64,000 nucleotides of DNA from Escherichia coli 042. GTDB lineage: Bacteria > Pseudomonadota > Gammaproteobacteria > Enterobacterales > Enterobacteriaceae. Position numbers and translations under genes: made by a program. The notes beneath the pieces are model-generated. The model was not told the DNA's origin and did not search any database. It saw nothing but the letters and a program-made list of their open reading frames with translations. The stretch lies in NCBI RefSeq assembly GCF_000027125.1, contig NC_017626.1; one strand, written 5' to 3'. Of the stretch, positions 42,241-42,505 are shown one piece after another (within the stretch, counting starts at the first letter, position 1; each line of letters starts with the position of its first letter).

Positions 42241-42505
42241 CCCTCCATACACACCTCACTCTATATCACTCTCACAAATTCGCTCAAATAATAAACAACA
42301 AACTCTGTTTTTTGATCTCACCCGGTAAAGTCGCCTATCTTTTCAGCAACAAAACTTGATTAACATCAATTTTGGTATGACCAATGCACCATTCATGTTA
42401 TTCTCAATAGCGAAGAACATTTTCATTGCTGTAACCTGTTGTTAATTAAGAGCTATATTAATAACTATTAATTAACAATTGGTTAATAAATTTAAGGGGG
42501 TCACG

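Follow-up and report, generated by a model that had tools for sequence, protein, structure and literature searches.

ndh encodes the non-proton-pumping NADH dehydrogenase of Escherichia coli, whose level sets the efficiency with which respiration is coupled to energy conservation. Its promoter is a multi-regulator region, reportedly bound by Fis at -123 (Fis I), -72 (Fis II) and +51 (Fis III) and by IHF at +26, -17 and -58. FNR sites at -94.5 and -50.5 are named in the title of Meng 1997, the FNR site centred at -50.5 is also given by Myers 2013, and Table 1 of Anzai 2020 provides the sequence of a PdhR box for ndh. At the same gene, ArcA ChIP-seq in K-12 revealed a peak of about 11-12-fold, with an ArcA box 'ttgttaattaatggttat' scoring 18.7 bits and a site of three repeats at 1165260-1165291, located at +46/+77 (Park et al. 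2013, PMC3798270), and phosphorylated ArcA was found to repress ndh transcription in vitro, with predicted ArcA sites at -57, +36, +52, +57, +66 and +68 (Rolfe et al. 2012, PMC3411108). A comparison of RNA-seq coverage between wild-type cells and an rnc mutant, with NC_000913.3 as the reference, further placed an in vivo RNase III site at position 1166043 of K-12, described as 'intergenic ycfP-ndh'; cleavage in vitro and 5' RACE then confirmed this site and showed several cuts (Gordon et al. 2017, PMC5371410). In the same study a long duplex was predicted at 11 of the 11 confirmed sites, ndh included, and the half-life of ndh mRNA was unchanged without RNase III.

We compared these descriptions with a stretch of 64,000 nucleotides from E. 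coli 042 (contig NC_017626.1), hereafter the window. The in vivo occupancy by ArcA, the in vitro repression by its phosphorylated form and the RNase III cleavage, seen both in cells and in vitro, come from the K-12 work of others; motif matches, folding, coordinate mapping and conservation are from this analysis. The open reading frames around the element under study are nagZ, ycfP, ndh and ycfJ, so that this segment of the window is the nagZ-ycfP-ndh region of E. coli, and 521 bases around the element were matched, over at least 80% of their length, in 5,413 of 5,426 complete E. coli genomes, annotated as ycfP and ndh. A comparison with the K-12 ndh promoter, proposed in the initial annotation of the window, showed that this is the locus of the ArcA operator studied by Park et al. 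and Rolfe et al., identical in sequence except for two SNPs in the element: the window has A instead of G at 42457, in the loop, and T instead of C at 42466.

The initial annotation had pointed to a symmetric, AT-rich element just upstream of the ndh ribosome-binding site. The 52-mer that it quoted is present at 42439-42490, its start having been given one base early at 42438, and the symmetry proved to be larger than described:

42432-42485, plus strand: imperfect palindrome, corresponding to a 5'-UTR hairpin (+20 to +73), from repeat search and folding; 90.6% of cells paired over 72 sequences

The arms (42432-42456 and 42461-42485) are 25 nt long and 84% complementary, with a 4-nt spacer. 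At the core, a perfect 11-mer, TTGTTAATTAA, lies at 42439-42449 and its reverse complement at 42468-42478; it occurs exactly twice in the 64 kb, both times in the ndh element and on opposite strands. The palindrome ranks first among the four inverted repeats of the window that have arms of at least 20 nt within 40 nt of each other. Folded as RNA, a 63-nt stretch reached -17.1 kcal/mol (z = -4.5), which 0 of 200 dinucleotide shuffles equalled, and folded as DNA it reached -12.6 kcal/mol (z = -5.8). The ndh palindrome is real and not a product of chance.

To place the element relative to transcription, two published coordinates were mapped onto the window. The FNR site at -50.5 (Myers 2013), combined with the perfect FNR box at 42356-42369, puts +1 at 42413, and the Park site at +46/+77, which maps to 42458-42489, leads to the same position:

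42396-42404, plus strand: extended -10, TGtTATTCT; TGnTATTCT is invariant in 85 distinct sequences
42413, plus strand: putative ndh transcription start, +1 (about +/-2), placed from the FNR I centre, the Park coordinates and the conserved -10

With +1 at about 42413, the element corresponds to +20 to +78 of a 93-nt leader and is transcribed, not upstream promoter DNA as the initial annotation had implied; the start falls before the element and not downstream of it. A scan for promoter and terminator consensus sequences gave no sigma-70 consensus match at the element.

We then scored ArcA boxes with a weight matrix made from 114 boxes of Park et al. 2013 (Table S3), leaving ndh out. The training boxes range from 9.4 to 21.5 bits, and the scan ran over the entire window on both strands, 127,966 positions in all. 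Three matches fall in the element:

42461-42478, minus strand: main ArcA box, TTGTTAATTAATAGTTAT; 19.5 bits, rank 1 of 127,966
42472-42489, minus strand: outer ArcA box, or third direct repeat; 13.3 bits, rank 4, within the three-repeat site of Park et al.
42439-42456, plus strand: ArcA box of the left arm; 11.8 bits, rank 8 in the window

The element thus contains at least two TGTTA-type direct repeats at a centre-to-centre distance of 11 bp with scores inside the range of known boxes. The repeated TTAATTAA/TTAATAA units noticed in the initial annotation are accordingly the tails of TGTTA-type ArcA repeats. With the same matrix, the main box scores 19.5 bits in the window and 19.1 bits in K-12, and, given the near-identity of the two sequences, ArcA would be expected to occupy and repress the element in the window strain as well. 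The ChIP-seq summits of Park et al. map to 42425-42437, left of the main box, and do not separate the occupancy of individual repeats. The plus-strand box of the left arm is not listed by Park et al. 2013; with it, ndh has two convergent boxes instead of their single direct-repeat array. Other multi-repeat ArcA sites (icdA, rutA and lon; Park Table S4) resemble ndh in having three TGTTA-type repeats with 11-bp spacing and in lying over or downstream of the start site, where they repress, but they are described as direct-repeat arrays on one strand, whereas the two arrays at ndh face each other and create a transcribed hairpin. Elsewhere in the window, strong matches to the ArcA matrix were seen at 61188-61205 (minus strand, 15.8 bits) and 21048-21065 (plus strand, 15.1 bits), ranking second and third.

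The initial annotation missed the RNA side of the element, namely that the palindrome forms a hairpin cut by RNase III in K-12. The leader hairpin has 25 stacked positions with 21-22 pairs, in the range of the duplexes of at least about 20 bp that serve as RNase III substrates. In NC_000913.3 ndh starts at 1166085, and the site at 1166043 is 42 nt upstream, which corresponds to the 3' arm near the hairpin apex:

42464, plus strand: equivalent of the K-12 RNase III site (NC_000913.3 1166043), by coordinate mapping

The in vivo site reported for K-12 as 'intergenic ycfP-ndh' therefore maps inside the hairpin. The in vitro template of Gordon et al. began in the upstream REP region and so contained REP elements; the in vivo coordinate lies inside the native ndh leader. 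ndh is absent from the main text of the RNase III map of Altuvia 2018. An Rfam scan at permissive E-values returned only microRNA-type hairpin noise at the element (22.5 bits, where the gathering score is 97). No terminator-like site was found there in a search for an intrinsic terminator or attenuator, the stem being AU-rich and followed by AAUAAAUUUAAGG, and a search of the literature found no sRNA reported to act on the ndh mRNA.

The element is real, functional and conserved, and its parts have already been described for E. coli K-12. In our reading, which we hold to be very probable, it is the transcribed leader-operator of ndh (NADH dehydrogenase II) and acts at both the DNA and the RNA level. 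At the DNA level, two convergent ArcA boxes, each built from direct repeats of the TGTTA type with 11-bp spacing, would occupy +27 to +77, with a plus-strand box at 42439-42456 and a stronger three-repeat array on the minus strand at 42458-42489. When respiration is limited, phosphorylated ArcA would bind the element and block transcription from the ndh promoter, presumably as a roadblock or by interfering with promoter clearance, and IHF (about +26) and Fis (about +51) would probably bind there too, as additional repressors. Because the boxes face each other, the transcript would fold into a hairpin that is rich in AU and about 25 positions long (+20 to +73); RNase III would cut this leader hairpin, which ends 8 nt before the Shine-Dalgarno sequence, and the cut may in turn affect ndh translation. 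The window strain, with its two apical SNPs, is expected to behave like K-12. The element would thus be where the ArcA redox signal acts on ndh, probably together with IHF and Fis, and ArcA action here would explain the repression of ndh when oxygen is limiting. That the RNase III hairpin is composed of two convergent ArcA boxes is not stated in the literature that we consulted, nor is the gapless persistence of this composite across many genera.

Conservation was assessed in a genome scan with Ndh that covered at least 80 Enterobacteriaceae species (the 80 closest loci); the matches listed in the Ndh protein search all had at least 84% identity. Among the 80 closest loci no indel occurs from the right arm to the left arm. 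The majority base reaches 84-99% in the element and 95-100% in the right arm, compared with only 55-70% from +1 to +18. The minus-strand ArcA box scores at least 15.6 bits in 72 of 72 distinct sequences, and the plus-strand box at least 9 bits in 70 of the 72 species sequences, with a maximum of 21.3 bits; the Enterobacter form of the latter, TTGTTAATTAAGGGTTAT, scores 17.7 bits. From these plus-strand scores, the site consists of two convergent ArcA boxes in most genera. Both boxes and the hairpin are retained in Erwiniaceae, four of which keep the hairpin and, equally far from the start codon, a minus-strand ArcA box of 12-19 bits.

Within E. coli, virtually all genomes have one copy of the element (the median number of places per genome is one). 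The exact allele of the window is a minority form, found in 148 of 5,417 genomes, and the K-12 allele (G, C) is found in 3,935 of 5,425; the two fold almost equally well (-17.1 kcal/mol for the window and -17.2 kcal/mol for K-12). We considered the two SNPs as a compensatory pair and rejected this, since 42457 lies in the loop and T at 42466 is shared by E. albertii, E. whittamii and further genera, a distribution that makes T look ancestral. Five matches to the 81-base element are on plasmid-labelled records, which may be chromosomal fragments or mis-assigned replicons.

The initial annotation had expected a dense regulator-binding region for FNR, Fis and IHF. An upstream promoter region packed with such sites and controlling ndh initiation is an unlikely account of the element, although the literature does name FNR, Fis and IHF as regulators of ndh. 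Upstream of the start, the window contains the following sites:

42282-42296, no strand: Fis-core-like, centre -124; 6 of 6 key positions matched in a simple scan for the Fis core
42312-42325, no strand: FNR II half-site TTGATctcaCCCGG (TTGAT), centre -94.5, read from the sequence
42333-42347, no strand: Fis-core-like, centre -73; 5 of 6 key positions in the same scan
42349-42366, minus strand: ArcA-box-like match of lower score, 10.6 bits (rank 12 of 127,966), which overlaps FNR I
42356-42369, no strand: FNR I, perfect TTGATnnnnATCAA, centre -50.5; the sole zero-mismatch match in the window
42370-42386, no strand: PdhR box ttTTGGTatgACCAATg, sequence from Anzai 2020; 96-100% conserved

The centres of FNR I and FNR II are 44 bp apart, as in the published -94.5/-50.5 pair, and both boxes lie upstream of the element, to which FNR had been assigned in the initial annotation. 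The only FNR match inside it, TTAATaactATTAA, was rejected because it has two mismatches, both at the essential G and C of TTGAT-N4-ATCAA; chance alone would give about 30 such two-mismatch matches in the window. A PdhR box in the element was likewise discarded, one half alone (AATTGGT, 42477-42483) of ATTGGT-N3-ACCAAT being present there and the full box at 42370-42386. The Fis-like cores at -124 and -73 fall next to the centres of Fis I and Fis II, reportedly at -123 and -72. All upstream sites of the multi-regulator promoter (FNR -50.5/-94.5, Fis I-III, IHF, PdhR and NsrR) are present and conserved in the window and fall outside the flagged element, which only IHF and Fis III, reportedly at +26 and +51, would overlap. 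Around FNR I, Rolfe et al. 2012 (PMC3411108) list a predicted ArcA site at -57. FNR I (42356-42365) and the right arm (42468-42477) have a common 10-mer with 90% identity (TTGATTAACA / TTAATTAACA), and together with the ArcA-like box over FNR I this suggests that ArcA and FNR sites may be interleaved at -57.

For IHF and Fis the expectation is plausible. We searched for the IHF core WATCAANNNNTTR and for a 15-bp Fis core with G at -7, C at +7, Y-A / T-R at +/-4 and +/-3 and an A/T centre, and obtained the following matches in the element:

42432-42444, minus strand: IHF-like 12/13 match TAACAACAGGTTA, centre +26, from the IHF core scan
42456-42470, no strand: weak Fis-like core, centre +51; 4 of 6 key positions, without the terminal G/C

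Two more 12/13 matches to the IHF core lie at 42473-42485 and 42476-42488 (+67 and +70); 72 such matches occur in the 64 kb, and none in the element is exact. The match at 42432-42444 coincides with the IHF site reportedly at +26, and the weak core at 42456-42470 with Fis III, reportedly at +51. These motif matches and positions make IHF and Fis sites in the element plausible and lend the promoter interpretation what it has inside the palindrome. Against it, the FNR boxes are outside, the element is downstream of the start, and ArcA is by far the best motif match. The regulator-dense character of the region is borne out, but its lead regulator, ArcA, had not been named.

Slightly less probable still is that the element is primarily an RNA element, with the hairpin selected for mRNA processing or for translation from the weak UUG codon and the ArcA matches secondary. 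RNase III cleavage in vivo and in vitro in K-12 speaks for this, as does the hairpin itself, which is predicted in every species examined. In a covariation test over 72 sequences, in which 13 of 25 pairs never vary, the sole pair with a double change was 42446-42471, from T-A to C-G in five sequences, and the covariation score was not above that of shuffles, variation being too low. In 58 of the 72 sequences and 25 of the 27 genus groups the sense strand gives the stabler fold of the two, because several left-arm variants give G.U pairs. However, this asymmetry comes from some six variable columns of the left arm that are shared by descent; a common variant with C42453 facing A42464 (50 of 72) disrupts the sense pair, and in E. 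coli, as an exception, the antisense strand folds better. The right arm is moreover nearly invariant, more so than a helix needs, which fits protein recognition, and the half-life of ndh mRNA does not change on loss of RNase III. Selection on the RNA helix itself is only faintly indicated by these data and stays a live but minor alternative to the leader-operator with its ArcA boxes. A combination of the two, in which the head-to-head ArcA boxes are kept because the same bases form the sense hairpin and RNase III processing tunes UUG translation, is a speculative extension to which we give a small chance; if true, the element would be one control element coded doubly, in DNA and RNA, and conserved in both Enterobacteriaceae and Erwiniaceae.

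The arms of 25 nt with their 4-nt spacer, the AT-rich centre and the stability of the DNA hairpin would also suit a cruciform that extrudes under negative supercoiling and, as a supercoiling sensor, modulates the promoter, and HU and nucleoid proteins act at ndh according to the literature; we nevertheless regard this as very improbable, since the arm mismatches disfavour extrusion and conservation tracks the ArcA repeats, with the right arm more constrained than the left, unlike in a symmetric cruciform. A chance palindrome or a copy of a dispersed repeat, which AT-rich intergenic DNA and the self-complementary TTAATTAA might suggest, can be set aside, as the element is the best inverted repeat of the 64 kb, outfolds all its shuffles and is a single-copy locus, and its gapless conservation in at least 80 species and in Erwiniaceae refutes this explanation.

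Downstream of the leader-operator, the initiation region was defined as follows:

42494-42500, plus strand: Shine-Dalgarno sequence AAGGGGG, from the sequence; 89-100% conserved
42506-43810, plus strand: ndh coding sequence with TTG start, from the K-12 annotation, related sequences and the title of a 1981 paper

The palindrome ends 8 nt upstream of the Shine-Dalgarno sequence and 20 nt upstream of the TTG, in agreement with the location just before the ribosome-binding site given in the initial annotation. Its proposal of a TTG start is also supported: the annotated ndh coding sequence of K-12 W3110 and MG1655 begins at the equivalent of 42506, the UUG start was published in 1981 in a paper whose title contains 'UUG initiation codon', and of 85 related sequences 71 start with TTG, 7 with ATG and 6 with GTG. 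The open reading frame list prolongs ndh by nine codons (42479-42505), as far as a TTG in the same frame at 42479, within the element. We rejected this start as an artefact of taking the first start after a stop; the annotated and conserved TTG at 42506 is the one behind AAGGGGG. ATG or GTG starts with an unchanged leader element occur in Kluyvera and relatives (loci L025, L026, L028-L031 and L033) and further in L037, L039, L052, L072, L075 and L076, which indicates that a weak ndh start is common but not obligatory. Farther upstream, the ycfP-ndh spacer at 42107-42240 carries palindromic units of the REP/BIME type, which match Rfam naRNA4 (RF02564) on both strands with 56.3 and 49.9 bits (gathering score 59.5), and one terminator-like hairpin is located in this spacer at 42200-42216.
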